Of a DNA stretch of 64,000 nt, positions 2,557-54,995 are shown piece after piece. Each line of letters begins with the position of its first letter. The first letter of the stretch is position 1. Source of the stretch: an uncultured Oligoflexia bacterium (GTDB taxonomy: Bacteria > Bdellovibrionota > UBA1018 > CAZJVD01); assembly GCA_964549505.1 (NCBI GenBank), contig CAZJVD010000005.1, positions 64,618-128,617 on the forward strand, read 5' to 3'. The notes beneath the pieces were generated by a model that was not told where the DNA came from, ran no database searches, and worked only from the letters and a program-made list of their open reading frames with translations. A program made the position numbers and the translations under genes.

Positions 2557-4506
2557 ATGAGTCAAGCCTTTTCCCCCCATATCCCGGCTAGTCGCTCGCT
2601 ACCGGAACTGACGCTACGATCGATCGTGCTCGGTTTTATTCTTTCAGCGGTTCTCGCAGCTGCGAACACCTACCTCGGCCTCTATGCAGGGATGACGGTG
2701 TCGGCGTCGATTCCGGCAGCTGTGACGTCCATGGTGATCTTCCGTCTCTTTCGAACAGCGAATATTTTAGAGAACAATGCCGTCATGACTGCGGCTTCAG
2801 CAGGCGAAGCCCTGGCAGCCGGAATGCTTTTCACGCTTCCAGCTCTCGTGTTGATGGGCCATTGGGAAAGCTTCCGATACTGGGACACGCTCATGATTGC
2901 TCTCTGCGGCGGATTCCTAGGCGTTCTCTTCACGGTACCGCTCCGACAAGCGCTCGTGATCAAACGAGGCCTTCCATTTCCAGAGGGTGTTGCCATCAGC
3001 GAGGTTTTGAAATCGGGTGAGGCCGGCGGACGCGACCTGCTCGTTCTTGCGTTCTCGTCATTGGTTGCGGCTCTCGTCAAGTATTGCAACAGCGCTGCTA
3101 ACCTTTGGTCGGCAGTACTTGAAAAGGCGACCGTCGTCGGTGGTCGAACGTTTTTATACTACGGAATGGACCTGTCCCCAGCACTCTTCGCGGTCGGTGC
3201 CATCGTTGGCCTTCCGGCCTCGTTCGTGATTTTTGCCGGTGGTGCGATCGGCTGGTGGATCGCGATTCCGATTTACATCTGGGTCACAGGAACCCCGACC
3301 GACATGCCTGCCATGGATCTCGGATACATGGTTTGGAGTACGAAGATTCGCTACATCGGTGTCGGCGCGATGGTGATCGGCGGTCTCTGGGCGCTGTACG
3401 AACTGCGCGACACTTTGAAAACAGCCGGAGAGCAGGCTTTACAAGTTATTCGTGGCGCTCGCACGCGCAAAAGCCAGCAGATGGCGTCACAACCACGGAC
3501 GGAACGAAACATTCCGTTATCCTGGGTACTCATTGGCATGGTTGTCATGTTGATCCCAATCTTCATCATCTATGTCCGCGAAATTCAGAGCCTACCGATC
3601 TCCATTGTCATGGCGATCGTGATGTTGATCGCAGGTTTCTTTTTCTCGGCGGTTTCTGGATATATGTCGGGCGTGGTGGGAGCGAGCAACAATCCTGTTT
3701 CGGGAATTACGATTGCAACGCTTCTGTTCGCAGCACTCCTGCTTTTGGTCCTTCTGGGTCGTGGATCGCCCGTCGGTCCAGCCGCAGCGATTCTGGTCGC
3801 AGCCGTTGTTTGTTGTGCGGCCTCCATGGGAGCCGACAATCTCCAAGATCTGAAATGCGGGCAACTTCTCGGGGCGACACCCTGGAAGCAACAGCTCGTT
3901 CTCGGTGTCGGTGTGATTGGCGGAGCTGTCGTGACGGGCCCCGTTCTCAATCTTTTGAACACGGCGTATGGATTCGGGGCGAAAGACGCCGCTCATCCGC
4001 AAGCACTTGCGGCACCTCAAGCAACTCTGATGCTCAATGTTTCGAAAGGTGTGTTCGGTGCTGGTCTTCCGTGGGGCATGGTCTTCATCGGAATTCTGGT
4101 CGGCGCTGGCGTCATCCTAATAGATCGCATGCTTGAGGCACGAAAAGCTAAGTTTCGAATGCCGGTTCTTGCGTTCGCAATCGGGATTTATCTTCCGTTC
4201 GAACTAGGAAGCTGCATCCTCATGGGTGGCATTCTTGCTTGGGCGCTCGGTCGACGTCTGAATAAGATGTCCAAGGCCGCTCAGGAACGCGGTCAACGCC
4301 TGAGTTTGCTCTTTGCTTCGGGTCTCATCACCGGTGAATCGCTGATGGGAATTTTCATCGCGATTCCGATCGTGCTGAGCGGTAAGGCCGATGTGTTTCA
4401 GATCTTGCCAGAATCGCTCGGCGCATGGCCGGGATTGATAGCGATGGGTCTGATCGCTTACTGGCTCTACAATCACGCACTGACGGCTGCACGTAAAGTG
4501 GCGTAG
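2557..4506 (+). CDS. OPT-family oligopeptide transporter
   Basis: 649 aa with many transmembrane segments. The N-terminus LRSIVLGFILSAVLAAANTYLGLYAGMTVSASIPAAVTSMVIF is typical of the OPT superfamily. RBS-like GAGGA lies upstream of the ATG at 2557. Confidence 0.85.
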   Translation: MSQAFSPHIPASRSLPELTLRSIVLGFILSAVLAAANTYLGLYAGMTVSASIPAAVTSMVIFRLFRTANILENNAVMTAASAGEALAAGMLFTLPALVLMGHWESFRYWDTLMIALCGGFLGVLFTVPLRQALVIKRGLPFPEGVAISEVLKSGEAGGRDLLVLAFSSLVAALVKYCNSAANLWSAVLEKATVVGGRTFLYYGMDLSPALFAVGAIVGLPASFVIFAGGAIGWWIAIPIYIWVTGTPTDMPAMDLGYMVWSTKIRYIGVGAMVIGGLWALYELRDTLKTAGEQALQVIRGARTRKSQQMASQPRTERNIPLSWVLIGMVVMLIPIFIIYVREIQSLPISIVMAIVMLIAGFFFSAVSGYMSGVVGASNNPVSGITIATLLFAALLLLVLLGRGSPVGPAAAILVAAVVCCAASMGADNLQDLKCGQLLGATPWKQQLVLGVGVIGGAVVTGPVLNLLNTAYGFGAKDAAHPQALAAPQATLMLNVSKGVFGAGLPWGMVFIGILVGAGVILIDRMLEARKAKFRMPVLAFAIGIYLPFELGSCILMGGILAWALGRRLNKMSKAAQERGQRLSLLFASGLITGESLMGIFIAIPIVLSGKADVFQILPESLGAWPGLIAMGLIAYWLYNHALTAARKVA

Positions 4507-4528
4507 CCGGAGCGCAGAAGGAAAGTTT

Positions 4529-4912
4529 ATGGCCGACCACGCGCCAGGTTTCTTAAAACTCGTTCACGCAGCGAAATCGCAGATTCAGGAGACGACCGTT
4601 GACGCGGTCAAAGAGCGTCAGGATCGGGGAGAATCGTTTTTGTTGATCGACTGCCGCGAAGATCGTGAGTGGCAGGCCGGTCACTTACCGGGAGCCACGC
4701 ATCTGGGAAAGGGCATCATCGAGCGAGACATTGAAAAACTCGTTCCTGATCGATCGAAAGAAATCGTTATCTATTGTGGCGGCGGATTTCGCTCAGCACT
4801 CGCTGCCGCGAGCCTCAAGGAGATGGGCTATCCGACGGTAATATCGATGGACGGTGGGTTTCGAAGCTGGAAAGAGAAGGGGTTTCCGGTTGTGAAACCT
4901 CAGTCGAAATAG
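4529..4912 (+). CDS. rhodanese-domain sulfurtransferase
   Basis: 127 aa. Motifs FLLIDCREDREWQAGHLPGATHLG and the active-site loop IVIYCGGGFRS. Confidence 0.85.
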   Translation: MADHAPGFLKLVHAAKSQIQETTVDAVKERQDRGESFLLIDCREDREWQAGHLPGATHLGKGIIERDIEKLVPDRSKEIVIYCGGGFRSALAAASLKEMGYPTVISMDGGFRSWKEKGFPVVKPQSK

Positions 4913-6227
4913 CGCGATTCTTCCCTTCGATCCATTTCGAAAAGTATTTCAGTCTCTCCCACCCAAACCGATTCAGTGCTCGCTCACGCCACGACTTTCG
5001 TGCATCCCGAGCTTCGCGCTCAGCATCGAGCGAACCGTCTTTCTTCTTATCGAGATACTCGGCGACGAGATCCGTCCATCGTTTGCCGTGAAAGTCGGCA
5101 TCCCCTCGCTCTTGTAAAACGACTGCACCACGCAGGGTCCAATCCTGAAACACATCCTGTTCAACGACGCCTCGAACAGCGGCTTCGGCGACCTTGTCGG
5201 CTTCAAAACTCTCAGCCCAACCTGCAAAGGGTTCGCCCATCCCTTCGGATCCCATGGGGGTCGTGACAACAGCCGTTTGAGCCGTCCAGGCATCGACAAT
5301 CTTCCCTTTTTGTCCCGCGCCAAATCGAAGCGGTGCGAGCAAGACACGGTACTGCGAAAGCGTCGTCACGGAATCGACCGCCCATCCCTTGCACGCGACA
5401 CCGGGAGTTTTTTCGGCCGCCTCAACCACTTTCCGGGAAAGATAAGCGCCATAGATATGCCACTCAGCACGCGGGAGTCGCTTCCGAATTGCTGGCCATA
5501 CCGTCTGCATTCCCCAAAGAACTGCATCTTCGTTCGGCGCATGTCGCATGTTTCCGATGAACACAAAGTCGCGTCGGTCATCGAACGCAACCGGGACTCG
5601 GAGTTCGCCTGACGCATGAATCGGTAAGAGCATCAGGCACTCTTTTGCGATACCGTTTTTCGTGACCAACCATTGCATCTCAGCGGGCGAAACGAGTAAC
5701 GAAAGATCGGAGCGTTCGATAGCAGCGCACTCCCGTGCTTCGACCTCACGGTCAAGAGCTGGCTCGAGCGCCGGTTCGTGTACCGGTTCGTGCACCGGTT
5801 CGTGTACCAGCTCGTGTAACGGACAAGCTTTCTCAACAGCCTGCTGCCGCGACAATCTCAAGAAACTCAAGTCCTGCGTATCGAGAATGCGTAATACTTG
5901 CGGGGCTCGCTCGCGCACGCGCCAGCTCCACATCTCTTCGCACACGAACGTATCAAAAAGCACGAGGTCGACCGTCTTGAGAAACGCATCCATCTCGCGG
6001 CTGCTTGTATTTGGATCAGCGACCATCAGCTGAACCAAGGGGTTCTCGTCGAGTTGTCGCTTTTTAAGTCGTGCGTTTGAGATCAACGTGATCGCAGCGT
6101 CACCCCAACGCGCACGTAACCACGCGATCACCTGCAAAACGCGGACGCTTGCTGCGGAACTGGAGGGTTCAGGAAAGACACGTACAAAATAGGCCACCTG
6201 AAGGGGCTTCACTAACTCTCTCGTCAC
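4815..6227 (-). CDS. glycosyltransferase family 4 (GT-B fold)
   Basis: The C-terminal half carries FIGNMRHAPNEDAV..IYGAY..GWAVDSVTTLSQYRVLLAPLRFGAGQKGKIVDAW..TTPMGSEGMG, typical of GT1/GT4 C-domains. It contains an in-frame (HEPV)n repeat. The 3' end overlaps the rhodanese gene by 98 bp. Confidence 0.6.
   Translation of the reverse strand: MTRELVKPLQVAYFVRVFPEPSSSAASVRVLQVIAWLRARWGDAAITLISNARLKKRQLDENPLVQLMVADPNTSSREMDAFLKTVDLVLFDTFVCEEMWSWRVRERAPQVLRILDTQDLSFLRLSRQQAVEKACPLHELVHEPVHEPVHEPALEPALDREVEARECAAIERSDLSLLVSPAEMQWLVTKNGIAKECLMLLPIHASGELRVPVAFDDRRDFVFIGNMRHAPNEDAVLWGMQTVWPAIRKRLPRAEWHIYGAYLSRKVVEAAEKTPGVACKGWAVDSVTTLSQYRVLLAPLRFGAGQKGKIVDAWTAQTAVVTTPMGSEGMGEPFAGWAESFEADKVAEAAVRGVVEQDVFQDWTLRGAVVLQERGDADFHGKRWTDLVAEYLDKKKDGSLDAEREARDARKSWRERALNRFGWERLKYFSKWIEGKNRAISTEVSQPETPSLSSFETHRPSILPSDSPSP
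5771..5818. repeat. 12-bp tandem repeat x4 (ccggttcgtgta-like) inside the GT4 gene, encoding HEPVHEPVHEPALEP
   Basis: Seen directly: ccggttcgtgtaccggttcgtgcaccggttcgtgtaccagctcgtgta. Confidence 0.8.
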
Positions 6228-7925: not shown

Positions 7926-8714
7926 TCAGACGGCGGAACTGGCATCCGATGAATCTGAACCAGCGCCCTCAACGCCCTCCTGGACCTGATTGAGAACGTC
8001 CGCAATATGGCCGTTGACCTGAACTCGGTTATAAACCCGTCGGATCACACCGTCGCCATCGATCACAAACGTCGTTCGTTCGATACCGATCGACTTACGA
8101 CCGTACATATTCTTCTCTTTAAGAACACCGTACTTTGTCGACACTTCGCCCGTCTCATCAGCCAAGAGCTTGAACTGAAGACCATACTTCTCAGCAAACT
8201 TCTGATGGCTTCTGACGTCGTCCCGACTGATGCCGAGAACCAAAACACCGCTTTGTTCAAACTGCTGTAACTCGCGCTGAAAGTCGCACGCTTGCTGCGT
8301 ACAACCAGGGGTCATGTCTTTCGGATAAAAATACAGCACGACCTTCTGACCACGAAGATCCGACAGTCGAATGATCTCACCGGTATGTGTCGGAAGCTCA
8401 AAATCAGGAGCTCGCATCCCCTCACTGAGAATCACACCGCGAGCAATCAACCCCGAAGGCGTGGCAGACTTCGCCTGCTTCGTTCCAGGCGCCGTCGCTC
8501 TCGGCGTCGTCGCTTTTGCCTTCGATGTCACTTTTGACGTCGCCTTCGCTGACTTTACCGATTTCGACGGCTTCGATGACTTTCCCGATTTTGCAGGTTT
8601 TGCCGATTTTGCCGACTTTGCATGAAGCGTTTTTCGTGCTGCTTTCTGTACTTTTTTCTTAGAATTTTTATTTTTAGTTTTGGTTTTAGTGGTTCGCGTT
8701 TTTTTCTTTGCCAT
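7926..8714 (-). CDS. bcp: peroxiredoxin Bcp (PrxQ type) with a ~115-aa lysine/alanine/serine-rich histone-H1-like N-terminal extension
   Basis: The C-terminal domain APDFELPTHTGEIIRLSDLRGQKVVLYFYPKDMTPGCTQQACDFQ is a classic Bcp. The N-terminus is MAKKKTRTTKTKTKNKNSKKKVQKAARKTLHAKSAKSAKPAKSGKSSKPSKSVKSAKATSKVTSKAKA. Start taken at the internal ATG at 8714, which has RBS-like spacing. The longer track ORF to 8873 would add an unconvincing N-terminus. Confidence 0.75.
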   Translation of the reverse strand: MAKKKTRTTKTKTKNKNSKKKVQKAARKTLHAKSAKSAKPAKSGKSSKPSKSVKSAKATSKVTSKAKATTPRATAPGTKQAKSATPSGLIARGVILSEGMRAPDFELPTHTGEIIRLSDLRGQKVVLYFYPKDMTPGCTQQACDFQRELQQFEQSGVLVLGISRDDVRSHQKFAEKYGLQFKLLADETGEVSTKYGVLKEKNMYGRKSIGIERTTFVIDGDGVIRRVYNRVQVNGHIADVLNQVQEGVEGAGSDSSDASSAV

Positions 8715-24576: not shown

Positions 24577-24651
24577 GCGTAACCAGTCACGGGCGGTGCG
24601 GAAGCATCGCTAAGACATGAGGCCGAGCCCGGTAGTACGGCTGAGCAAGCG

Positions 24652-24707
24652 GGATCATGGGGATTATGGGGATTACGGGAATCACGGGAATCACGAGGAT
24701 CTCAGCC
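24652..24707. repeat. 9-bp tandem repeat x5-6 (ggggattat/gggaatcac) in non-coding DNA
   Basis: Seen directly: atggggattatggggattacgggaatcacgggaatcacgaggatc. Confidence 0.7.
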
Positions 24708-24732
24708 AGGCATTAGGTTTGACGCAGGTTCG

Positions 24733-24865
24733 CTTGTTCCGGAACAAGCGCATTGCGTTATCATTGTTACACTGCGACGCCGTTGCTGGTCACCCACTGC
24801 GTTTGTGGCGGCGGAAGCAGTGGCTCTTATGGTGACTTCACTAGCGGTACTTGTGCCGGCACAAG
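24733..24865. repeat. REP-like palindromic repeat locus A: CTTGTTCCGGAACAAG (24733-24748) and CTTGTGCCGGCACAAG (24850-24865)
   Basis: Perfect 16-bp palindromes of the same family as the locus at 53881-53962. Shared flanking motifs include atcattgtta, ggtcacc and tcactgcg. Confidence 0.7.
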
Positions 24866-24915
24866 CGAACCTGCGTTATTTTAGCCAACACAGTTTATTG
24901 GTCGCAACCTGACGC

Positions 24916-25464
24916 TCAGCAACGTCCTTGTACAACCGCGGCTTTCAAGCTGTCGACGTGCGATAGCCAGCGGGCGATGACGTCTTCAGCGAAACCCGTT
25001 TCACGCAAAGTCTCGACAAGAATGACGCGACGGCGGTCAAAGTGTCCCGGTTTGATCTTGAAGGGCGCGTGCACACGCTGCATTTCGCGATGCACGTCCG
25101 AACTGTGCGCATCCGATCTGCGCACGTCCGGTCTGCCCACATCCGGTCTGCGCGCAACTCCGGCATCCGCTCTATCCGCGACCGGCTGAGCCGCTGGACC
25201 CGACGACGGCGGGACCTGCCCCTGGTCGGACAATGCATCCGCGGACGCCTTCACAATGGATGCATTCACGATGGATACATTCTCAATGGACGCATTCACA
25301 CTCGCCGCATTCAAAGTGGACGCATTCAAGAACGTGATCGTCATTTCGGTCTCGCGCTCAACGAGTCGCGCGAGGTCGGACTTCGCGAAGTAAAAACCGA
25401 TCATCGTGTCGGCTCGGACTTTCTCATAGAACTTCGTCAGCGCGGCATGAACGCGATCACGCAT
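24916..25464 (-). CDS. truncated (2/2) haemoglobin interrupted by an in-frame ~90-aa low-complexity insertion encoded by two 15-bp minisatellites
   Basis: The N-terminal TKFYEKVRADTMIGFYFAKSDLARL and the C-terminal MQRVHAPFKIKPGHFDRRRVILVETLRETGFAEDVIARWLSHVDSLKAAV match trHb conservation (B/E-helix FY, F-helix His, FD). The middle region NASTLNAASVNASIENVSIVNASIVKAS...RRPDVGRPDVRRSDAH is repeat-encoded. Start taken at the ATG at 25464. Confidence 0.55.
   Translation of the reverse strand: MRDRVHAALTKFYEKVRADTMIGFYFAKSDLARLVERETEMTITFLNASTLNAASVNASIENVSIVNASIVKASADALSDQGQVPPSSGPAAQPVADRADAGVARRPDVGRPDVRRSDAHSSDVHREMQRVHAPFKIKPGHFDRRRVILVETLRETGFAEDVIARWLSHVDSLKAAVVQGRC
25105..25172. repeat. 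15-bp minisatellite x4 inside the trHb gene (gcgcatccgatctgc / gcacgtccggtctgc / ccacatccggtctgc...)
   Basis: Seen directly. It encodes the RRPDVG/RPDVR/RSDAH repeats. Confidence 0.7.
25252..25330. repeat. 15-bp minisatellite x5 inside the trHb gene (caatggatgcattca-like)
   Basis: Seen directly. It encodes NASIV-type pentapeptide repeats that contain N-x-S sequons. Confidence 0.7.
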
Positions 25465-25493
25465 ACGGACCGCCCCCTCCCCCGCAAACGCGG

Positions 25494-26153
25494 TCACGCA
25501 TAGGGATTGGTCCCTGCCGCATGATCGGTAACATCCACAACGTCTGTGATCTCTGGAAACTTGCGTGTGAGTGCGACGCGAATTCCGTCGCGCAAGGTCT
25601 GCGCCGCCATTCCGCATCCCTGACAACCACCCGCCATCTCAACGTACGCTCGCGGTAGTTCGACTTTCGTCAGTTTTGCTCGCCCGCCGTGCGACGCAAG
25701 GGACGGATTGATCTCGGTATCGATCAAACGCTCGATCGCCGAAAACAATTCGCTTCCCTTCGCAGACGCTCCGTCCGTGTTACCCGGTCCACCGGCCGAC
25801 ACGACCGCCTGGCCAAAGTCCGACGGCCACACCATACCTTCTGCAAACGTGGCCCGAATTGCGTCACCGACCTGTCGTCCAATCTGCGGCCAGGGTTGCT
25901 CCATGGACTCAGCGGTACGCGACACGATCAAACGGTGCGACTCTATAAAAACAGACTCGACCGCACTCACCCCAAAGATTCTTCGTAACAACGGCGTGTC
26001 ACTTCGATCCCATCGTACGGACTCGTTGCGATGAACTGCAAGCTTACCCGGGAAAACAACCCGGTCGATATTGAACTCGCAAACCCGCGGATCTGGCAAA
26101 GGTTTACCGAAAATTTTTACTGGAGATTCAGGCGTGGGTGTCGCGATCGCCAT
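25494..26153 (-). CDS. Nfu-type Fe-S cluster carrier (Nfu_N scaffold domain plus NifU-like C-terminal CxxC domain)
   Basis: A C-terminal GGCQGCGMA motif sits in a NifU-like domain. A ~90-aa Nfu_N-like domain lies N-terminal to it. Located in the Fe-S operon. Confidence 0.7.
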   Translation of the reverse strand: MAIATPTPESPVKIFGKPLPDPRVCEFNIDRVVFPGKLAVHRNESVRWDRSDTPLLRRIFGVSAVESVFIESHRLIVSRTAESMEQPWPQIGRQVGDAIRATFAEGMVWPSDFGQAVVSAGGPGNTDGASAKGSELFSAIERLIDTEINPSLASHGGRAKLTKVELPRAYVEMAGGCQGCGMAAQTLRDGIRVALTRKFPEITDVVDVTDHAAGTNPYA

Positions 26154-26162
26154 TCATCCGCC

Positions 26163-27338
26163 TCAAACCGTGAACTCCGCCGTCGATTCTTTGCGATCGA
26201 CAAGACATTTGGTGCACTCACAATGTTTACGGAGTTTGTCGTACGGATAGATACCCGTACGATGACCATCCGAAAATTCGAAACCAAAAGCGTAGCGTCC
26301 GATCGGTTGATATCCTTTGATTGCGGTATTCGTCGGAATTTTTGTCGGATCGAGGGTTCGCTTGCCGGTGTTCTCATCGATGCAGCTCGCGCAACCGCAC
26401 TGCACCCGAAGACGGTAACCGTGATGTTCCGACTTGTGTCCATCCGGCCACGTGATCGAAAACTTTCCCGTAGGATCGAGCGCCGCTTGCAAGGGTTGAT
26501 CGGCGTCCAAAGCTCCTGAGTAAGCATCCAAAGTTTTCAAAAGTTCGCGCGCAATGGCAACGAAAGCTTGCCCCGAAACCGTCTTCTCACCGCCAGAACG
26601 TTCCAGCGCCGGTTCCCCTCGATCGCTGTCGTCGACAAGCGTCGGGTCCAGCGGCACACGCCCCAGAAACGGAATATGTTGTGCGGATGCGAGCTTTTCC
26701 GTACCCGTTTTCTTAAAAATATCCGTTTCCTTGCCACAATGACCGCAAACAAACCCGCTCATATTCTCGACCAAGCCCAGAATCGGAACACGGACCTGTT
26801 GAAACATACGAATGCCCTTTTGAGCGATCTCAAGCGCCAGCTTTTGAGGCGTTGAAACAATCACGGCACCCGTAAGCTTCGCACTCTGCGCGAGCGTCAG
26901 CTGTACGTCCCCCGTTCCCGGAGGCAGATCCAGAATCAAAACATCGAGTTCTCCCCAGAGTACGCCATCCAAAAACTGGTGAATCACTTTCATCGCCATC
27001 GGTGCACGCCACACGACCGGACCATCGCGTGGAATCAACGCTCCCATCGAGACCATTTTTATTCCGAAATGTTCGACGGGTGTAATCTCACCTTTTTCGT
27101 TCTGACGAGGTCCTTCGCCCCAACCCAGCAACGATGTCTGACTCGGGCCATAGATGTCGGCGTCGAGCATTCCTACTTTGAGCCCTTCGCGCTTGAGCGC
27201 AATCGCGAGATTGGCAGCAACCGTCGACTTACCTACGCCGCCCTTACCGCTTCCGACGGCTATCAAATGCTTGACCCACGCTGTGCCTGGAGGCGGTGTC
27301 ACGGTCGTCGCATCGTCTTTGTTTTTCCAGAATGCCAT
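26163..27338 (-). CDS. apbC: Mrp/ApbC/NBP35 P-loop ATPase (Fe-S cluster carrier) with a C-terminal DUF971-like Cys-rich domain
   Basis: Deviant Walker A GKGGVGKSTVAANLAIAL and N-terminal FWKNKDD-type features. The C-terminus is CGCASCIDE...CECTKC. Confidence 0.85.
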   Translation of the reverse strand: MAFWKNKDDATTVTPPPGTAWVKHLIAVGSGKGGVGKSTVAANLAIALKREGLKVGMLDADIYGPSQTSLLGWGEGPRQNEKGEITPVEHFGIKMVSMGALIPRDGPVVWRAPMAMKVIHQFLDGVLWGELDVLILDLPPGTGDVQLTLAQSAKLTGAVIVSTPQKLALEIAQKGIRMFQQVRVPILGLVENMSGFVCGHCGKETDIFKKTGTEKLASAQHIPFLGRVPLDPTLVDDSDRGEPALERSGGEKTVSGQAFVAIARELLKTLDAYSGALDADQPLQAALDPTGKFSITWPDGHKSEHHGYRLRVQCGCASCIDENTGKRTLDPTKIPTNTAIKGYQPIGRYAFGFEFSDGHRTGIYPYDKLRKHCECTKCLVDRKESTAEFTV

Positions 27339-27522: not shown

Positions 27523-27933
27523 TTACGTCGAAAAACTCGAACCACAACCGCATGTACGTTTCGCATTTGGATTTGAAAACTCAAAACCACGTCCATCCAA
27601 ACCGTCCGAAAAATCTAAGACCGTACCTTTTAAAAACAGCAGCGACTTCTTATCAACTACAACCTGCACGCCGTCCTTTTCAAATACCTGGTCATCGGCA
27701 TGGGGGGCAGCGAGGACACCGACCTCCGCTGTCTCTCCCGAAGCTGTCATCTGAGAGCCGTGGTGAGAACCCAGATGAGTACTGACACTCTCAAATCCGA
27801 GCTTGTAACTCATCCCGGAACAACCACCACCAATCACACGCACGCGCAAAATAGCGTTCTCTGGACTGGGCTCTTTTGTTTTTAAAATCTTGATCTGCGC
27901 GACTGCGCGATCCGTTAGTTCAAACGTCGTCAT
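27523..27933 (-). CDS. A-type Fe-S carrier (IscA/SufA/ErpA, HesB family)
   Basis: [14 protein letters not shown] and C-terminal CGCGSSF. Overlaps the sufB stop by 4 bp. Confidence 0.85.
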
Positions 27934-29378
27934 CCGACACTCCCTTCCAACTTGAGATCGAGCAGACGGGTTGCCTCGATCGCAAATTCCATTGGTAACG
28001 TCTTAAAAACCTCTTCGCAGTAACCGTTGATAATGAGTTTCCGCGCTTCGTCCTCATCAAGACCGCGGCTCATGAGATAAAACAGCTGTTCTTCCGAAAC
28101 ACGCGAGGCCGTCGCTTCGTGTTCGATCACGGCCGTCGAGTTACGAACATCGATCAAAGGAAAGGTGTTGGCTACACAGGTTGGACCAATCAGAAGCGAG
28201 TCGCATTGCGTGAAGTTTCGCGCTCCGGTTGCGCGCGGACTCACTTGAACAGCACCGCGATAGGTTTGCACACCGTGCCCCGACGAAATCCCTTTCGAAA
28301 TGATCCGACTCCGCGTGTTCTTTCCGAGATGAATCATCTTCGTACCCGTATCCGCTTGCATCCTATGATTGGTGATCGCGACGCTGTAAAACTCGCCAAC
28401 CGAACCATCACCTTCGAGAACACAGCTCGGGTACTTCCATGTGATCGCAGAGCCCGTTTCGACTTGCGTCCACGAAATCTTCGAGCGTTCTCCTAAGCAA
28501 CGACCGCGCTTGGTGACAAAATTATAGATTCCGCCCTTACCTTTTTCGTCGCCCGAGTACCAGTTTTGAACCGTGGTGTACTTGATGGTCGCATCGTCGA
28601 GCGCAACCAGTTCAACGACAGCCGCATGCAATTGGTTTTCATCACGCATTGGCGCCGTGCAACCCTCGAGGTAACTCACCACAGAGCGTTCATCAGCAAT
28701 GATCAATGTCCGCTCAAACTGTCCTGTTTCGGAAGCATTGATGCGAAAATATGTCGAAAGGTCCATCGGACAAGCGACGCCTTTCGGAATGTAAACAAAC
28801 GATCCGTCGCTGAAGACAGCAGAGTTCAATGCCGCAAAATAATTGTCACCAATCGGCACCACGGACCCCAGATATTTACGAACGAGCTCCGGACATTCTT
28901 GCATCGCTTCGGATATGGAACAGAAAATCACACCCTTTTTTCGAAGCTCTTCTCGATGGGTGGTGACCACCGAAACACTGTCGAAAACAGCGTCAATAGC
29001 TACGCCTGCTAGGCGTTTCTGTTCGTGAAGTGGGATTCCAAGCTTGGCGTACGTTTCCAAAAGTTTTGGATCGACTTCATCCAAACTCTTGGCTTTCTCT
29101 TTCACACGAGGCGCCGAAAAATAGGTGATCGCCTGATAGTCAATCGGCGGATAGTGAACACGTGCCCAGGAAGGCTCGGTCATGGCCTGAAACTTCTTGA
29201 ACGCTTTCAGCCGAAACTCGAGCATCCAATCGGGTTCTGATTTTTTTGCTGAGATCGCCCGCACCGTGGCTTCCGTCAAACCAGCAGGAATCCGATCTTC
29301 TTCGATATCAGTGACAAAACCATATCTTGAATAATCGCGCGCGATATCGGGTTTCGCGGGCACCGTTTCGGTTCTCAT
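27930..29378 (-). CDS. sufB: Fe-S cluster assembly protein SufB
   Basis: 482 aa. Conserved SufB C-terminal block [57 protein letters not shown]. Confidence 0.9.
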
Positions 29379-29860
29379 ATGCGAACCTCGTCGCCAGCAC
29401 TCACACTCTCACGCGTCACCTGACCCGAGTGACCCGAGCCTTCGAGCGCGTGCTTGAGCGTCGTCCAACCCAGAAGCGCACACTTGATCCGCACCGGAAA
29501 GCGGCGAACGCCCTGAAGGGACTCGACATCGGTTCCGGAAAACGAAACCGGATTCTCTCCTTGCATCAGCGCACGAAAGTCTTCGACGGTCTTTCGAGCT
29601 TCATCGACCGTCCGACCCTGAACTTCTTCAGTCATCATACTTGAGCTCGCCATGCAGATCGAACAACCCTCGCCCTGAAACCGACACGCTGTGATGCGCT
29701 TCTGTTCCGTATCGAGCTGCAGACACACACGTACGCGGTCTCCGCAGAGAGGATTGAAACCTTCTTCGACGCGGTCAGGCTTAGGCAGACTGCCGAAGTT
29801 CCGCGGATCACGGTGGTGGTCCAAAATCAGCTCTTTATAAAGCAAATCAAGGTCTTCCAT
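29375..29860 (-). CDS. SufU/IscU-family Fe-S scaffold or sulfur-transfer protein (NifU-like N-terminal domain)
   Basis: N-terminus [21 protein letters not shown], a [26 protein letters not shown] Cys triad, and [10 protein letters not shown]. Start taken at 29860, which leaves an operator-like palindrome upstream. The track start is at 29902. Confidence 0.7.
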
Positions 29861-29895
29861 CAGCTTTGCGCCCGATTCTACAGGGCCTGAGTATT

Positions 29896-29922
29896 TAATC
29901 AATACTTTTTAGTATTAATTTG
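29896..29922. promoter_or_regulatory. AT-rich imperfect inverted repeat (AATCAATACTtttttAGTATTAATT) in the divergent suf/lipoprotein promoter region
   Basis: Seen directly. 9 of 10 bases match between the arms with a 5-bp spacer, 36-60 bp upstream of the sufU-like ATG. A candidate operator for an unidentified repressor. Confidence 0.35.
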
Positions 29923-29988
29923 ATTTTGCCCCCCAAAGACCCGCCTTATCGTAAACTTAAGCAGTATTGAACCTGAAAGGATCCCCGA

Positions 29989-30348
29989 ATGAGCCGAATA
30001 AGAAAGACATCCTACTGTGTGCTGGGTTTGGTCATGACGACACTGATGATTGGATGCGCCAGCTCGCAGAAGTCCGATGCCGAACTCGCCAAGAGCGATG
30101 GGATTGATGTGCCCATGGCACCGAAAACACCCGTCATCAGCGATGCGACCTCGGTCACATGCTCCAAAGGCAATGACGTTCGAACCGTCTCGAACCTCAA
30201 ACGCGCCAGCGGCGGGTGCGAGGTCGAGTACGTCAAGTTTGGTGAAAAAAACATCGTCGCGAGTGCCGCGAGTGATCTCGGTCATTGCATGAAGATCATG
30301 GAACGGATCGAAGGAAAGCTCAAAGCTTCGGGCTATAGCTGTCAATAG
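29989..30348 (+). CDS. small hypothetical lipoprotein
   Basis: Signal plus lipobox CVLGLVMTTLMIGCASSQ. 119 aa. The 3' end overlaps the hemH 3' end by 29 bp. Confidence 0.4.
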   Translation: MSRIRKTSYCVLGLVMTTLMIGCASSQKSDAELAKSDGIDVPMAPKTPVISDATSVTCSKGNDVRTVSNLKRASGGCEVEYVKFGEKNIVASAASDLGHCMKIMERIEGKLKASGYSCQ

Positions 30349-31414
30349 AACGCGCCTTAAAGTCTTTTAAGCGCGGCTCCTTTGCGCACGACTCGTTTAA
30401 CCACGACGCAAATCCAGCGACCCATTCCGGCGAAGCGTTCACGCACGACACGAGTGTGCACGTCGTTCCCCCGGCTTCTTCGAATTGCTCACGCACGCGG
30501 ATTCCAACCTCTTCGAGTGTTTCGAGACAGTCGGACACAAACGATGGGCATGCAACCACGAGATGGCGCACGCCGTTTTTCGCCAAAGCTGGAACGACTT
30601 CGTCGGTATAGGGGCGGATCCACGGCTTGCGACCGAGACGTGACTGAAACGAAAAACTCCATTTTTCCCTGGGAATCCGTAGATTTTCAGCAAGCCCCTT
30701 AGCCGTGGCGAGACACTGCGCTCGGTAACAGTGCTCGAGACGCGCCCCGGGTTGCTCACAGCAATCCGCACTCTCGAAACAGCTTTCGCAGCCTGAAATT
30801 TTTTGAATCTGGTGCACCGGAAGACCATGAAAGCTGAAAAGAACATGGTCCCATGTCTGAACGGATAACTTTTTTCTAATCTCGGACGCCTGCGCTTCGA
30901 TAAAAGCACGCGCATCGAAAAACGGTGAGGCACGACGAATCGTGATCTCCGTCGCTTGTTTTCGAGCCAGCTTCTCAACGTACTGAAACGTCGACTCACT
31001 CGAAGCAAGCGCATACTGCGGGTAGAGCGGAACCACACGCACGGTTTTCACGCCAGCCGCTACGAGCTCACGAAACGCAGCGGCGAGCGACGGAGTTCCG
31101 TAACGCATACCGAACGCCACCGGACCCAAGCCATGAACGCCCGCCTGGGCACGGAGCTTTTCAATAAACTCACTCGAATGGAATCGAAGAGGGGAACCCT
31201 TCTCGGACCAGATCTTTTGATAAGCCTTCGCAGAAGCGTGCTTCCGACGAGGTGTGATCACCACGTTCACGAGTAGCCACCTAAAAACAGCAGGGATATC
31301 AATGACATGTGGGTCCATCAGGAACTCCCGGAGATACCGACCTACTGCCTCGGGCGTCGGAGCGTCAGGAGTGCCTAGATTAGCTAGAAGCCAGCCCTCA
31401 CCTTTGTCGATCAC
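30320..31414 (-). CDS. hemH: ferrochelatase
   Basis: N-terminus GWLLANLGTPDAPTPEAVGRYLREFLMDPHVIDIP. 364 aa, co-linear with ferrochelatase family conservation. Confidence 0.85.
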   Translation of the reverse strand: MIDKGEGWLLANLGTPDAPTPEAVGRYLREFLMDPHVIDIPAVFRWLLVNVVITPRRKHASAKAYQKIWSEKGSPLRFHSSEFIEKLRAQAGVHGLGPVAFGMRYGTPSLAAAFRELVAAGVKTVRVVPLYPQYALASSESTFQYVEKLARKQATEITIRRASPFFDARAFIEAQASEIRKKLSVQTWDHVLFSFHGLPVHQIQKISGCESCFESADCCEQPGARLEHCYRAQCLATAKGLAENLRIPREKWSFSFQSRLGRKPWIRPYTDEVVPALAKNGVRHLVVACPSFVSDCLETLEEVGIRVREQFEEAGGTTCTLVSCVNASPEWVAGFASWLNESCAKEPRLKDFKARSIDSYSPKL

Positions 31415-32062: not shown

Positions 32063-32838
32063 CGCGACGACGCCCCTCCTCCACCAAAACCTCCGCCAAA
32101 ACCTCCACCCCCGAACCCGCCGCCTCCGAATCCACCGCCCCATCCCCCACCACCCGGACCTCGTCGGCCCCAACCGAAACCTGTTCTGGGCTGAAGACGC
32201 GAACCAGTGAAAATGCGAAGGACGAGAAAGAAGATCAACAAGAAGAAGAACCATCCCATTCCAGAAAATCGCACCGTCTTACGAGGCGACGTCCGAGCAC
32301 CACCCTCAGTCGGTACCCCAAGTTTCTCGGCCATCGCCTCCAGACCAGCGACGACAGCCTGACCGCGGTACCCGTTACGCAAGAGCGGTACGATGTGATC
32401 GGACAGAATACGCTTTGCTTCCACGTCGGTAATGAATTCTTCAAGCCCGTAGCCGACCTCGAGTCGGAGCGCGCGGTCGGAGGGAACCACGACCAACACA
32501 AAACCACGATCGGACTTCTTGTCGCCCAGCTTCCAGGCGTCAGCGACCTTGATCGCGAACTCTTCGACGGACATGCCACGCGTGTCGGCCGCGATCAGCA
32601 CGACACCTTGTGCGTTCGCACGTTCACGCAGCTCGGTTAAAGTCGACACAATGGCGGAACGATCGCCACCCGAAAGCCACGCGATCTCCTCCACCACAGG
32701 GCCGGTCATAGGACCTATGACACTTGGAACCGGCGGCTGATCGGCGAGTGCAAGCGCACTCAGAAACACCCACGCGCCGCACAGGCCCCATATTCTGCAC
32801 CACATTCTATTGATGAACCTAGCGCCCCTTTGTACCAA
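32056..32838 (-). CDS. TPM-domain protein (YgcG-like) with a C-terminal transmembrane segment and a Gly-rich (GGGFGGG)n tail
   Basis: A signal peptide, then SVIGPMTGPVVEEIAWLS..VVLIAADTRGMSVEEFAIKVADAWKLGDKKSDRGFVLVVV (TPM core). The tail is GWGRRGPGGGGWGGGFGGGGFGGGGFGGG. Confidence 0.75.
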   Translation of the reverse strand: MVQRGARFINRMWCRIWGLCGAWVFLSALALADQPPVPSVIGPMTGPVVEEIAWLSGGDRSAIVSTLTELRERANAQGVVLIAADTRGMSVEEFAIKVADAWKLGDKKSDRGFVLVVVPSDRALRLEVGYGLEEFITDVEAKRILSDHIVPLLRNGYRGQAVVAGLEAMAEKLGVPTEGGARTSPRKTVRFSGMGWFFFLLIFFLVLRIFTGSRLQPRTGFGWGRRGPGGGGWGGGFGGGGFGGGGFGGGFGGGGASSRW

Positions 32839-53768: not shown

Positions 53769-53962
53769 CTATTAGAGATCATTGTTATTCAAGGTCGTTG
53801 TTATTAGGTGACCAACCACACGCTCCACCCCATTGGGTCGCGGACATGTGCCATGGCGTTATGTCACTGCGGAGCCGTAGCACTTGTGCCGGCACAAGTG
53901 CTCACTGCTACTTACTTGTCCCGGTTCAAGTGCTCACTGCTACTTACTTGTCCCGGCACAAG
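53769..53962. repeat. REP-like palindromic repeat locus B: CACTTGTGCCGGCACAAGTG (53881-53900), CTTGTCCCGGTTCAAG (53915-53930) and CTTGTCCCGGCACAAG (53947-53962), with a directly repeated ~33-bp unit and upstream atcattgtta / ggtgacc motifs
   Basis: Seen directly. Same family as locus A at 24733-24865. Confidence 0.7.
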
Positions 53963-54128
53963 TAACCAGTTCAAAATCCAGACGGAGCAGTTTGAAATAC
54001 GGCCAAGCTACTCCGCCGGCGGAGGTACGCAGCCACGGATCAAGCCCGCAGAGACGTGACGCGAAGGTATGTTGCGTGGTGGTATCGCATGTTTGTAACG
54101 CATCCTCGCTACCAAAAGTAGCCGGACA

Positions 54129-54995
54129 CTATTTGGCTTCTTGAGCCTTCGGCGTCGCGGCGACGTCGGCGTCAAATGCACTGCGCAGCACGTCCAGAAC
54201 GGGCGCCGAAAGAGTCAGCGGTTTCCGAAGGTCGTTCCCGAACCGTCCACCGAGACCGCCCCACTGCCCTTCGCCAATCTCCACCAACTGGCCCGATGTC
54301 ATACCGGTAAACGTCTTTCCGAATTCGAGCTTTCCTTCGTAAACGACGACTTCAGCTTCCCCGAGCAGCGGTTCAAATTTCGCGATGAACTGTGTTCCAC
54401 GGACGCCCATCACAGCGGCGCGCGTACGGATGCGAACCCATGCTTTTCCGGGACTGTCTTTCTTTACGGACCATAGGCACGCGCCCGACGTCAGTTCGTA
54501 AACGCCTTTTTCTGGGTCAGGTCTCGCTAAGAAGATTTTCGTTTTTTCTGCAAGCTTGACGCTTGTGTCTTTACCCAAGAAAACGAGCGTAACTTTCGAC
54601 TTTGGTCCCGTCTCGATCCAGCCTTCGGACGAAACGATCGAACTCGCCGTAAGAGCCTTGTCTTGAAAACGAACCTGTCCAACGACGCCTTCGATGCGGG
54701 CAAACGGGTCCGCCGCCAGAACGGTCGCCCCCGTGACGAAAGCAGCACCTGAAAGCAGGAGAACTCTTGGGGTCCACAGGCGCCCTACCCACGACGTGCG
54801 CGTCCGCCGCCGTATCAGAGCCGGCTCGCCCAGCTTACCCTGCACACCGTGCTCGCCTGGATCACTACGTCGATCGTACCCACCACATCCACCACGCCCA
54901 CTACATCCACCACGCCCACTACATCCACCACGCCCACCACGCCCACCACGTCCACTACATCCAGCGCATCCACTACATCTATTGACCTGAAACAT
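54129..54995 (-). CDS. FecR-domain protein with an N-terminal Cys/Gly/Arg repeat (CSGRGG)n and a single transmembrane segment
   Basis: The periplasmic part carries VRIRTRAAVMGVRGTQF (the FecR VRGT motif). The N-terminus CSGCAGCSGRGGRGGRGGCSGRGGCSGRGGCGG is encoded by 18-bp tandem repeats. No sigma factor gene is adjacent. Confidence 0.55.
   Translation of the reverse strand: MFQVNRCSGCAGCSGRGGRGGRGGCSGRGGCSGRGGCGGYDRRSDPGEHGVQGKLGEPALIRRRTRTSWVGRLWTPRVLLLSGAAFVTGATVLAADPFARIEGVVGQVRFQDKALTASSIVSSEGWIETGPKSKVTLVFLGKDTSVKLAEKTKIFLARPDPEKGVYELTSGACLWSVKKDSPGKAWVRIRTRAAVMGVRGTQFIAKFEPLLGEAEVVVYEGKLEFGKTFTGMTSGQLVEIGEGQWGGLGGRFGNDLRKPLTLSAPVLDVLRSAFDADVAATPKAQEAK
54871..54975. repeat. tandem ~18-bp repeats (ccactacatccaccacgc-like, about 5 copies) inside the 5' end of the FecR-domain gene
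   Basis: Seen directly. Confidence 0.7.

Follow-up and report, generated by a model that had tools for sequence, protein, structure and literature searches.

Can a truncated haemoglobin (trHb) carry some 70 residues of low-complexity repeats in the loop just ahead of its proximal histidine, and what is such a gene doing at the end of a string of iron–sulphur (Fe–S) cluster biogenesis genes? Both questions are raised by a gene on contig CAZJVD010000005.1 (assembly GCA_964549505.1) of an uncultured Oligoflexia bacterium, within a stretch of 64,000 nt (contig positions 64,618 to 128,617) that was analysed as a whole and is called the window here; all positions refer to it unless another locus is named. 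Judged from its sequence, the gene probably encodes an intact, functional and divergent group-1-type trHb in which the pre-F loop has been replaced by a lineage-specific low-complexity excursion. The pre-F loop of truncated haemoglobins positions the proximal histidine. Residues are numbered throughout on the 193-aa version of the protein, which begins at a GTG codon. The gene and its parts are the following.

24916..25497, minus strand: truncated-haemoglobin (trHbN-like) gene, 193 aa from GTG 25497 or 182 aa from the alternative ATG 25464, identified from the list of open reading frames (ORFs), two gene callers and PDB, Pfam and fold matches.
25327..25497, minus strand: N-terminal globin half, aa 1-57, with a short A helix and helices B, C and E, including F23-Y24 (B9/B10), D30-x-M-I-G-F-x-F37, L45 (E7) and E49 (E11), from alignments and a predicted local distance difference test (pLDDT) score of 89-98 over residues 11-60.
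25237..25326, minus strand: array A, aa 58-87, six in-frame 15-bp units (NASTL NAASV NASIE NVSIV NASIV KASAD), from Tandem Repeats Finder (TRF), a repeat search and a unit table.
25153..25236, minus strand: linker between the arrays, aa 88-115, 28 residues, non-repetitive, rich in Pro/Ala/Ser/Gly/Asp and predicted to be disordered (pLDDT 45-54).
25093..25152, minus strand: array B, aa 116-135, four in-frame 15-bp units (RRPDV GRPDV RRSDA HSSDV) running into the F helix, from the same three sources as array A.
24916..25092, minus strand: C-terminal globin half, aa 136-193 and the stop codon, with F8 His143, G151-H-F-D-R155-R156, W177 and the C-terminal Cys193, from invariant columns, Pfam and a pLDDT of 88-97.

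A divergent truncated haemoglobin

The first-pass annotation had read the flanks of the repeats as two halves of a truncated haemoglobin, and profile and fold comparisons bear this out. The alignment with trHb families that it called for returns full-length matches to group 1 (trHbN): searched against the PDB, a profile built from the family alignment finds group-1 trHbs at E ~1e-14 (Tetrahymena 3AQ9, Mycobacterium tuberculosis (Mtb) HbN 1IDR, and 5AB8). The single sequence, searched against the PDB with phmmer, aligns with Synechocystis GlbN in two collinear stretches, query 16-47 with chain 13-44 and query 132-177 with chain 65-107. When the insert is excised in silico, the protein scores 23.4 bits against Pfam PF01152 Bac_globin, above the gathering threshold of 21, in a single stretch that pairs residues 14-119 with profile positions 10-119 of 121. 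Globin models thus recognise the flanks, and the globin reading stands. The query is one of the 16 aligned sequences, out of 17, that match PF01152 at E<=0.01. Searched exhaustively with HMMER, 1.84 billion representatives yield 170 matches at E<=1e-3, nearly all of them 110-170 aa long, and nearly all of the 150 matches listed from these align to the query in two stretches.

An AlphaFold2 model built on the homologue alignment has the 2-on-2 alpha-helical fold of trHbN. Its pLDDT is 88-98 for residues 11-60 and 150-190, 61-70 for residues 61-90, where the model lengthens the E helix, 45-54 for the coil of residues 90-129, and 71-79 for a helix of residues 130-143 that ends at the proximal His. 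The top 32 Foldseek matches to this model in the PDB are all truncated haemoglobins, mostly of group 1 (probability 0.96-1.00, target-normalised TM score 0.50-0.72); their E-values are only ~1e-2, weak because of the insert.

The haem pocket keeps its B10 Tyr, E7 Leu, E11 Glu and F8 His. H143 corresponds to His F8, and F23-Y24 to the B9-B10 pair of Mtb HbN and Tetrahymena trHbN; Tyr at B10 is a hallmark of truncated haemoglobins. The protein departs from the classical pattern at E11, where it has Glu (E49) rather than Gln, and in the hinges, where the Gly-Gly of the AB and EF corners with a short pre-F loop is lacking and the AB corner reads A-G-E-G. All nine invariant and all four near-invariant positions of the family are kept (D30, M32, I33, G34, F37, H143, G151, F153, R155, R156, L160, L164 and W177), as is the family's C-terminal Cys, and the flanks are 40-48% identical to the nearest homologues. 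Group 1 truncated haemoglobins bind haem b and a diatomic ligand, as this protein may too.

Two degenerate arrays in the pre-F loop

In the profile alignment the query's ...ETEMTITFL pairs with the end of the E helix of Mtb HbN and its REMQRVHAPFKIKPGHF pairs with a 17-residue Mtb HbN stretch. The insert is located between the end of the E helix (..TFL) and R-E-M-Q-R-V-His(F8), in the pre-F loop, where the first-pass annotation had put it. Homologues in the 17-sequence alignment cross with a 9-residue loop the region in which the query has ~79 residues. The distance from DxMIGF to GHFxRR, measured in the 150 best representatives of the 170 matches, is 49-53 residues in all 114 that have each motif once, and 121 in the query alone, which brings the size of the insert down to ~70 residues from the ~90 first estimated. 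The insert is absent from every one of 80 genomic loci, where the matches are ~300-360 nt long. Relatives above 50% identity were found neither in a word-indexed search of 5.8 billion proteins, which returned only the protein itself and one 34% match, nor among the 1.84 billion representatives, nor in the JGI metagenomes. The insertion thus appears to be unique as far as the databases show.

TRF reports a period-15 array at 25092-25153 (4.1 copies, 78% matches, score 68, or 82 at period 30) and another at 25243-25328 (5.7 copies, 77% matches, score 95), and the repeat search places the copies of both arrays in register at 15-nt spacing. At the DNA level the units of array A are AATGCGTCCACTTTG, AATGCGGCGAGTGTG, AATGCGTCCATTGAG, AATGTATCCATCGTG, AATGCATCCATTGTG and AAGGCGTCCGCGGAT, and those of array B are CGCAGACCGGATGTG, GGCAGACCGGACGTG, CGCAGATCGGATGCG and CACAGTTCGGACGTG. 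The linker, which starts ADALSDQGQVPPSSGPAAQPVADRADAG, is of low complexity without repeats. None of 500 codon shuffles of the globin gene reaches a TRF score of 68 (the largest is ~41), and 30 triplet shuffles of the whole window yield one array scoring at least 60 in total. The unit sequences of the arrays have no further occurrence within the window. Two in-frame 15-bp arrays inside the globin ORF, with NASIV-like and RPDV-like pentapeptide units, had already been recognised in the first-pass annotation and are confirmed, six and four times over respectively; its array limits (25105-25172 and 25252-25330) are off by ~10-20 nt. Its view that the insert is built from the two arrays holds for ~50 residues and fails for ~28, which are the non-repetitive linker.

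On its own, the insert has no Pfam match at E<=1. Reading the NASIV units as a pentapeptide-repeat beta-helix (A[D/N]LXX) was rejected, given the lack of a Pfam match at that level and a model in which AlphaFold2 draws a helix and not a beta-helix; array A has six units with a variable centre residue, compared with the at least eight consecutive units expected of such repeats.

The arrays seem to have grown by duplication of the native edges of the loop, since the array B unit resembles the homologues' own pre-F segment G-R-P-L-x-x-V-H (GRPLAEVH, GRPLPDVH) and array A begins at the position of the family's L-G-S/L-D-S segment. On this proposal two native 15-bp segments, one at the end of the E helix (..L-N-A-S..) and one in the pre-F segment G-R-P-x-D-V-H, would have been duplicated in tandem and in frame by replication slippage or unequal exchange, with the Pro/Ala/Ser linker between them, and the units would afterwards have diverged to 73-87% identity. 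Adjacent units share 11-13 of 15 nt (73-87% identity), with 8-13 of 15 in the unit table for array A, and the longest exact run at an offset of 15 is 10 nt.

Bacterial coding minisatellites, or contingency loci, are in-frame tandem repeats that vary by slipped-strand mispairing. The globin arrays share with them a period that is a multiple of three, a place inside an ORF and pentapeptide units. If this were such a hypervariable locus, frequent changes of 15 bp in copy number would tune or switch the protein between strains, and the period would let such changes keep the frame; several other coding tandem arrays also lie in the window. The arrays differ from those of contingency loci in that their units are degenerate (73-87%) and few (four to six), and that their host is a cytoplasmic haem protein of one compact domain, not a surface protein. 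Slippage works poorly on degenerate arrays, and known slippage-driven loci have near-perfect units, which these arrays lack, with their longest exact offset-15 run of 10 nt. Two assemblies, which supply the only two copies of the locus in the collections searched, also give the same structure. A contingency locus is therefore very improbable. The arrays are probably old, because their units have diverged without any frameshift, and the sequence points to fairly stable degenerate minisatellites.

The repeats might instead have been created or mis-sized by short-read assembly, the source being a metagenome-assembled contig. Over 1.1 kb at the locus, the NCBI/ENA contig and the Logan assembly of run SRR8863434, the product of an independent assembler, do not differ (100% identity); both probably go back to one sample and to the same reads, so that the comparison checks the assembler and not the population. 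The arrays are 60-90 bp long, shorter than a typical read, and their degenerate units are unambiguous to assemble. The reading frame and both globin halves are coherent. An assembly artefact is accordingly the least credible of the explanations considered, and barely worth entertaining.

The start of the gene and its overlap with nfu

The minus-strand frame that holds the globin ORF runs from stop to stop over 24916-25638, and the gene callers differ on where translation begins, at ATG 25464 (182 aa, P0001) or at GTG 25497 (193 aa, P0003). In the alignment, the extra 11 N-terminal residues of the GTG version (MTAFAGEGAVR) fall on the [LI]-G-G-E segment found ahead of the B helix in homologues. 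A GGAGG lies 11 nt 5' of ATG 25464, which keeps that codon as an alternative candidate start. The GTG is the likely start. Of the extent first annotated (24916-25464), the stop end stands and the 5' end probably does not, given the alignment with the family's [LI]GGE. ORFs on the opposite strand across the repeats (25042-25503 on the plus strand and others) were rejected as genes; the homology and the conserved residues are on the minus strand.

A further lineage-specific insertion, of six residues (R-M-R-D-R-V), lies at the A-B corner of the globin (window 25450-25467). Its DNA resembles three 6-bp units (CGTATG CGTGAT CGCGTT). It falls in a gap in all 16 aligned homologues, of six columns in most and of four in three.

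The GTG start overlaps the stop codon of nfu, an Fe–S carrier gene that lies directly upstream. Gene calls in the locus record for this region (L001) agree on the overlap, at 4345-5004 and 5001-5582 of that record. The arrangement suggests translational coupling between nfu and the globin gene. The genes of the neighbourhood are as follows.

25494..25497, minus strand: GTGA overlap of the globin GTG start with the nfu TGA stop, 4 nt, read from the sequence (TAT GCG TGA / GTG ACC GCG).
25494..26153, minus strand: nfu, Nfu_N plus NifU (Pfam PF08712 and PF01106), the Fe–S carrier directly upstream of the globin gene.
26163..27338, minus strand: mrp/apbC-type P-loop Fe–S carrier fused to GBBH-like_N (DUF971) (Pfam PF10609 and PF06155; NCBIfam MrpORP/ApbC), with a 9-nt gap to nfu.
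27523..29902, minus strand: sufU (NifU_N), sufB and iscA/sufA, with 4-nt overlaps between neighbours and a 184-nt gap from iscA to mrp, from ORFs, Pfam and gene calls.
29899-30345, minus strand, or 29989-30348, plus strand (strand uncertain): small ORF between ferrochelatase and sufU, without a Pfam match.
30320-31414, minus strand: ferrochelatase (last step of haem synthesis), just upstream of the sufU-sufB-iscA-mrp-nfu-globin string.

A 2-Cys peroxiredoxin gene on the plus strand lies directly beyond the globin gene and is convergent with it. The placing of the globin as the last gene of an Fe–S biogenesis cluster is thus upheld, with its 4-nt overlap with nfu and the 9-nt gap between mrp and nfu. 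The gene spacing strongly suggests that the globin is co-transcribed with mrp and nfu. A promoter and terminator scan of the locus gave counts no different from those in shuffles, and Rfam has no match in the window.

An Mrp/ApbC-DUF971 fusion followed by Nfu_N plus NifU is a conserved two-gene module in distant relatives (L084 2804-4588, L086 199-1946, L087 228-1992). The window's SufB is 80-82% identical to proteins from metagenome-assembled genomes (MAGs) of Bdellovibrionales/Bdellovibrionota, and the window probably comes from this phylum. In one relative (L090), sufB-sufA is followed by a convergent AhpC gene as in the window, without mrp-nfu-globin. As a separate observation, the sufU-sufB-sufA genes of the window have no sufC, sufD, sufS or Rrf2 gene next to them, and the closest SufB relatives (L088, L089) have the full operon.

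A wider globin subfamily linked to SUF operons

The globin belongs to a subfamily that is defined here by DxMIGFxF, a Glu at E11, the F8 His, G-H-F-x-R-R, a Trp and a C-terminal Cys. The query has the whole signature (D30, M32-I33-G34-F35, F37, E49, H143, G151-F153, R155-R156, W177 and C193). Near-invariants of the family are the F8 His (53 of 55), E11 Glu (50 of 55), a Cys in the C-terminal region (50 of 55) and the Arg-Arg after G-H-F. Neither the query nor any of six homologues is covered by an NCBIfam model, and in a full-text literature search no paper turned up that places a globin in a suf or Fe–S assembly operon, only Mycobacterium stress-response papers that name both separately. The subfamily appears to be uncharacterised. 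As an observation in its own right, the long proteins P0004 (670 aa), P0012 (640 aa) and P0128 (1882 aa) match the globin query in 5-9 stretches and may be multi-domain or tandem trHbs.

A degenerate-pattern scan of 185,579 species genomes with a 6-sequence alignment supplied the genomic loci, and the counts given here are for 80 listed of 110 confirmed. These come mainly from MAGs labelled Myxococcota, Polyangiales, Binatia, 'Deltaproteobacteria', Thermodesulfobacteriota and Oligoflexia. At 36 of the 80 the globin is on the same strand as, and within ~100 nt 3' of, an Rrf2-sufC-sufB/D-sufS-sufU-sufT(DUF59)-sufT string; at the other 44 it is not behind a suf operon. The SUF-linked globins are usually followed by genes for methylenetetrahydrofolate reductase (MTHFR) and lysyl-tRNA synthetase. 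Examples of the suf-globin-MTHFR block are L012, L014 (683-7369), L018, L021, L024 and L026, along with ~30 other loci. Binatia and 'Deltaproteobacteria' MAGs account for most of the genomes with this block, and Chloroflexota, Limnocylindrales, Udaeobacter and Eisenbacteria are each the label of a single locus. The query too is adjacent to and co-oriented with an Fe–S gene, through the 4-nt overlap with nfu. The co-transcription of a globin with Fe–S genes, which the first-pass annotation called unusual, is so for globins in general and not for this subfamily, in which 36 of the 80 loci have the globin at the end of a SUF operon.

In a neighbour-joining tree, which is weak, being built on 139 columns without support values, the SUF-linked globins form one clade and the query falls outside it, next to globins from a Lujinxingiaceae locus (L058) and an Oligoflexia locus (L064). 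Members of the SUF clade have Ile, Val or Met at B10; Tyr at this position is confined to the query and a few others. On present evidence, the linkage with Fe–S genes seems to have arisen, or survived, in two different operon architectures.

Other repeats in the window

TRF finds in-frame arrays with periods of 9-24 in at least five other ORFs of the window, four of which have a Pfam domain.

375-457, 5762-5822, 8578-8621, 32078-32109 and 54879-54979: other coding arrays, periods 9, 12, 18 and 24, with RGG-like, HEPV, AKS, GGGF and CSG/RGG peptide repeats.

The ORFs concerned are one without a Pfam match, a glycosyltransferase, an AhpC/TSA protein with an N-terminal extension, a TPM-domain protein and a FecR-domain protein. 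In the four with Pfam domains the arrays are in termini or linkers, not inside a compact domain. The pattern suggests a genome-wide tendency to coding low-complexity expansions.

Several non-coding repeats were also seen. A 155-nt element at 24722-24876, between the convergent peroxiredoxin and globin genes, has 27-nt terminal inverted repeats (93% complementary), and the 16-nt palindrome CTTGTNCCGGNACAAG closes each arm; folded as RNA, the region has z = -3.6. Candidate identities are an element like the repetitive extragenic palindromes (REP) or the miniature inverted-repeat transposable elements (MITE), or a bidirectional terminator. Three more copies of CTTGTNCCGGNACAAG form a 32-nt tandem array at 53882-53963 (TRF score 143), making five in the window where shuffles lead one to expect 0. 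At 24650-24695, in the intergenic region directly 3' of the peroxiredoxin gene, a 9-bp unit is repeated in tandem ~5 times (GGGATTATG / GGGAATCAC); the only ORF across it is an unsupported one of 72 aa.

A tolerated loop expansion, a decaying gene or an adaptive arm

The explanation preferred here joins several parts: the globin would be made from the same mRNA as Mrp and Nfu, with its start overlapping the nfu stop, it would keep the 2-on-2 fold, and the insert would loop out at the E-F corner as a tolerated, near-neutral expansion of a kind common in the host genome. Looping out without disturbing the haem pocket is predicted because the ends of the insert sit at the surface E-F corner of the fold. 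As a joint proposition this is considered likely.

A number of findings weigh against this explanation. The native protein scores 17.9-18.0 bits against PF01152, below the gathering threshold of 21, and its alignment is restricted to the C-terminal half (residues 136-188 on profile positions 67-119). The repeat insert stands in place of the EF motif of trHbs (LGG..Y.G, with its Gly-Gly and Y-x-G). The E-F spacing is extremely constrained elsewhere in the family, and a 70-residue insertion could damage the positioning of the F helix; the confidence of AlphaFold2 is low in the insert, and the model is no proof that the insertion is tolerated. On the operon side, the SufB relatives have Rrf2-sufC-sufD-sufS-sufU(-sufT)-sufB-sufA without mrp, nfu or a globin. 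The nearest Nfu proteins are ~36-40% identical, and among the four contigs checked for them mrp(DUF971)-nfu is kept in three and the globin in none. The closest sampled globins, those of L058 and L064, have neighbours unrelated to Fe–S genes, and the Fe–S linkage may rest on only two evolutionary events, as the SUF-linked homologues form one clade. Since relatives keep mrp-nfu without the globin, the globin looks like a lineage-specific addition to a conserved mrp-nfu module.

Part of this evidence is what would be expected of a decaying gene, a possibility that the first-pass annotation had also raised. The insertion would then have inactivated the globin, leaving the F helix misplaced and no haem bound, and the ORF would be a relic that has yet to meet its first stop or frameshift. 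The E-F spacing that is invariant (49-53) in all other family members, the lost EF hinge motif, the full-length Pfam score under the cut-off and the extra RMRDRV insertion at the A-B corner all fit this account. Other frames are also open in this GC-rich region, so that an open frame is weak evidence of selection. The lost hinge and the otherwise rigid spacing leave real doubt about the geometry of the haem pocket. Relics, however, are not expected to keep all nine invariant and four near-invariant residues, the F8 His, the Arg-Arg pair and the Trp among them, or the C-terminal Cys, in flanks still 40-48% identical to the nearest homologues. The repeat units have diverged by 13-27% without a frameshift or stop, which points to long persistence in frame, and the start/stop overlap with nfu is preserved. 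With the conserved positions all kept and the frame open, decay is unlikely.

A different possibility is that the insertion is adaptive, a protruding helical or disordered arm that docks or tethers the globin (e.g., to Nfu, Mrp or a client protein) and was acquired when the gene joined the mrp-nfu operon. Neither the insertion nor the nfu linkage occurs outside this lineage, and in the AlphaFold2 model array A prolongs the E helix by 30 residues and array B lengthens the F helix at its N-terminal end. The low-complexity composition, low pLDDT and lack of a Pfam match argue against an arm of this kind, as do the similar repeats scattered in unrelated genes of the same genome. An adaptive arm is improbable, more so than decay, and a tolerated expansion is preferred to both.

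Comparison with known truncated haemoglobins

Mtb HbN (GlbN, group 1; 1IDR, 1S56) is the natural reference. The two proteins share the 2-on-2 fold, with a full-length collinear profile match at E ~3e-14, as well as the F8 His, B10 Tyr, E7 Leu and the M-x3-H-x4-I-x4-F spacing around the F helix. The query differs in having Glu rather than Gln at E11, in lacking a pre-A extension and in having its ~70-residue repeat insert in place of the GGPEPYTG pre-F loop; GHFDRR, Trp177 and the C-terminal Cys are specific to the query's family. Its gene is in an Fe–S operon and not standalone.

The group 1 trHbs of Tetrahymena pyriformis and Paramecium (3AQ5/3AQ9, 1DLW) and Synechocystis GlbN (1MWB, 2HZ2) are the best sequence matches among solved structures, with the highest score for the Tetrahymena Q50E mutant. 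They are ~15% identical in the structural alignment and lack the E-F insertion, the Arg-Arg and the C-terminal Cys motifs.

The SUF-linked clade of Binatia, 'Deltaproteobacteria' and Thermodesulfobacteriota MAGs (e.g., L014 6001-6405) shares the subfamily motifs and the position as last or near-last gene of an Fe–S operon. Its members are 110-140 aa long without an insert, have Ile, Val or Met rather than Tyr at B10 and form a separate clade in the tree. Their partners are sufCBDSU-sufT-sufT and then MTHFR, where those of the query are mrp-nfu.

Possible roles beside the Fe–S carriers

Under the preferred explanation, the globin would act as an accessory to the Fe–S cluster carriers in haem-based redox or gas (O2 or nitric oxide, NO) buffering or sensing. 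Extended to the subfamily, a haem-based O2/NO/redox buffer or sensor serving Fe–S carriers is proposed with low confidence. The protection of Fe–S assembly from NO and O2, suggested by the first-pass annotation, is a reasonable guess. Classical NO-dioxygenase chemistry is not assured, because most SUF-linked relatives lack TyrB10 and all have Glu at E11. The E11 Glu, the Arg-Arg pair and the terminal Cys suggest a chemistry unlike the NO dioxygenation of Mtb HbN.

A bolder version would make the subfamily a dedicated and so far overlooked accessory of bacterial Fe–S biogenesis, either a haem-based O2/NO/redox gate or a partner in handing off iron or electrons. It would have been recruited independently at least twice, behind sufT in the SUF operon of Binatia and 'delta' genomes and behind mrp-nfu here, with the repeat arm as an added interaction element. 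This remains speculative and, with all its parts taken together, rather doubtful.

Implications

If the protein still binds haem, the insertion is a natural experiment on how far the pre-F loop of a truncated haemoglobin can be stretched. Neither this insertion nor the linkage with Fe–S genes ranks as a major discovery on present evidence. The insertion in a single genome is a curiosity, and the linkage with SUF and NFU genes at the level of the family has the wider bearing. A haem protein co-expressed with Fe–S scaffolds and carriers would bear on how the assembly of O2- and NO-sensitive clusters is protected or regulated.

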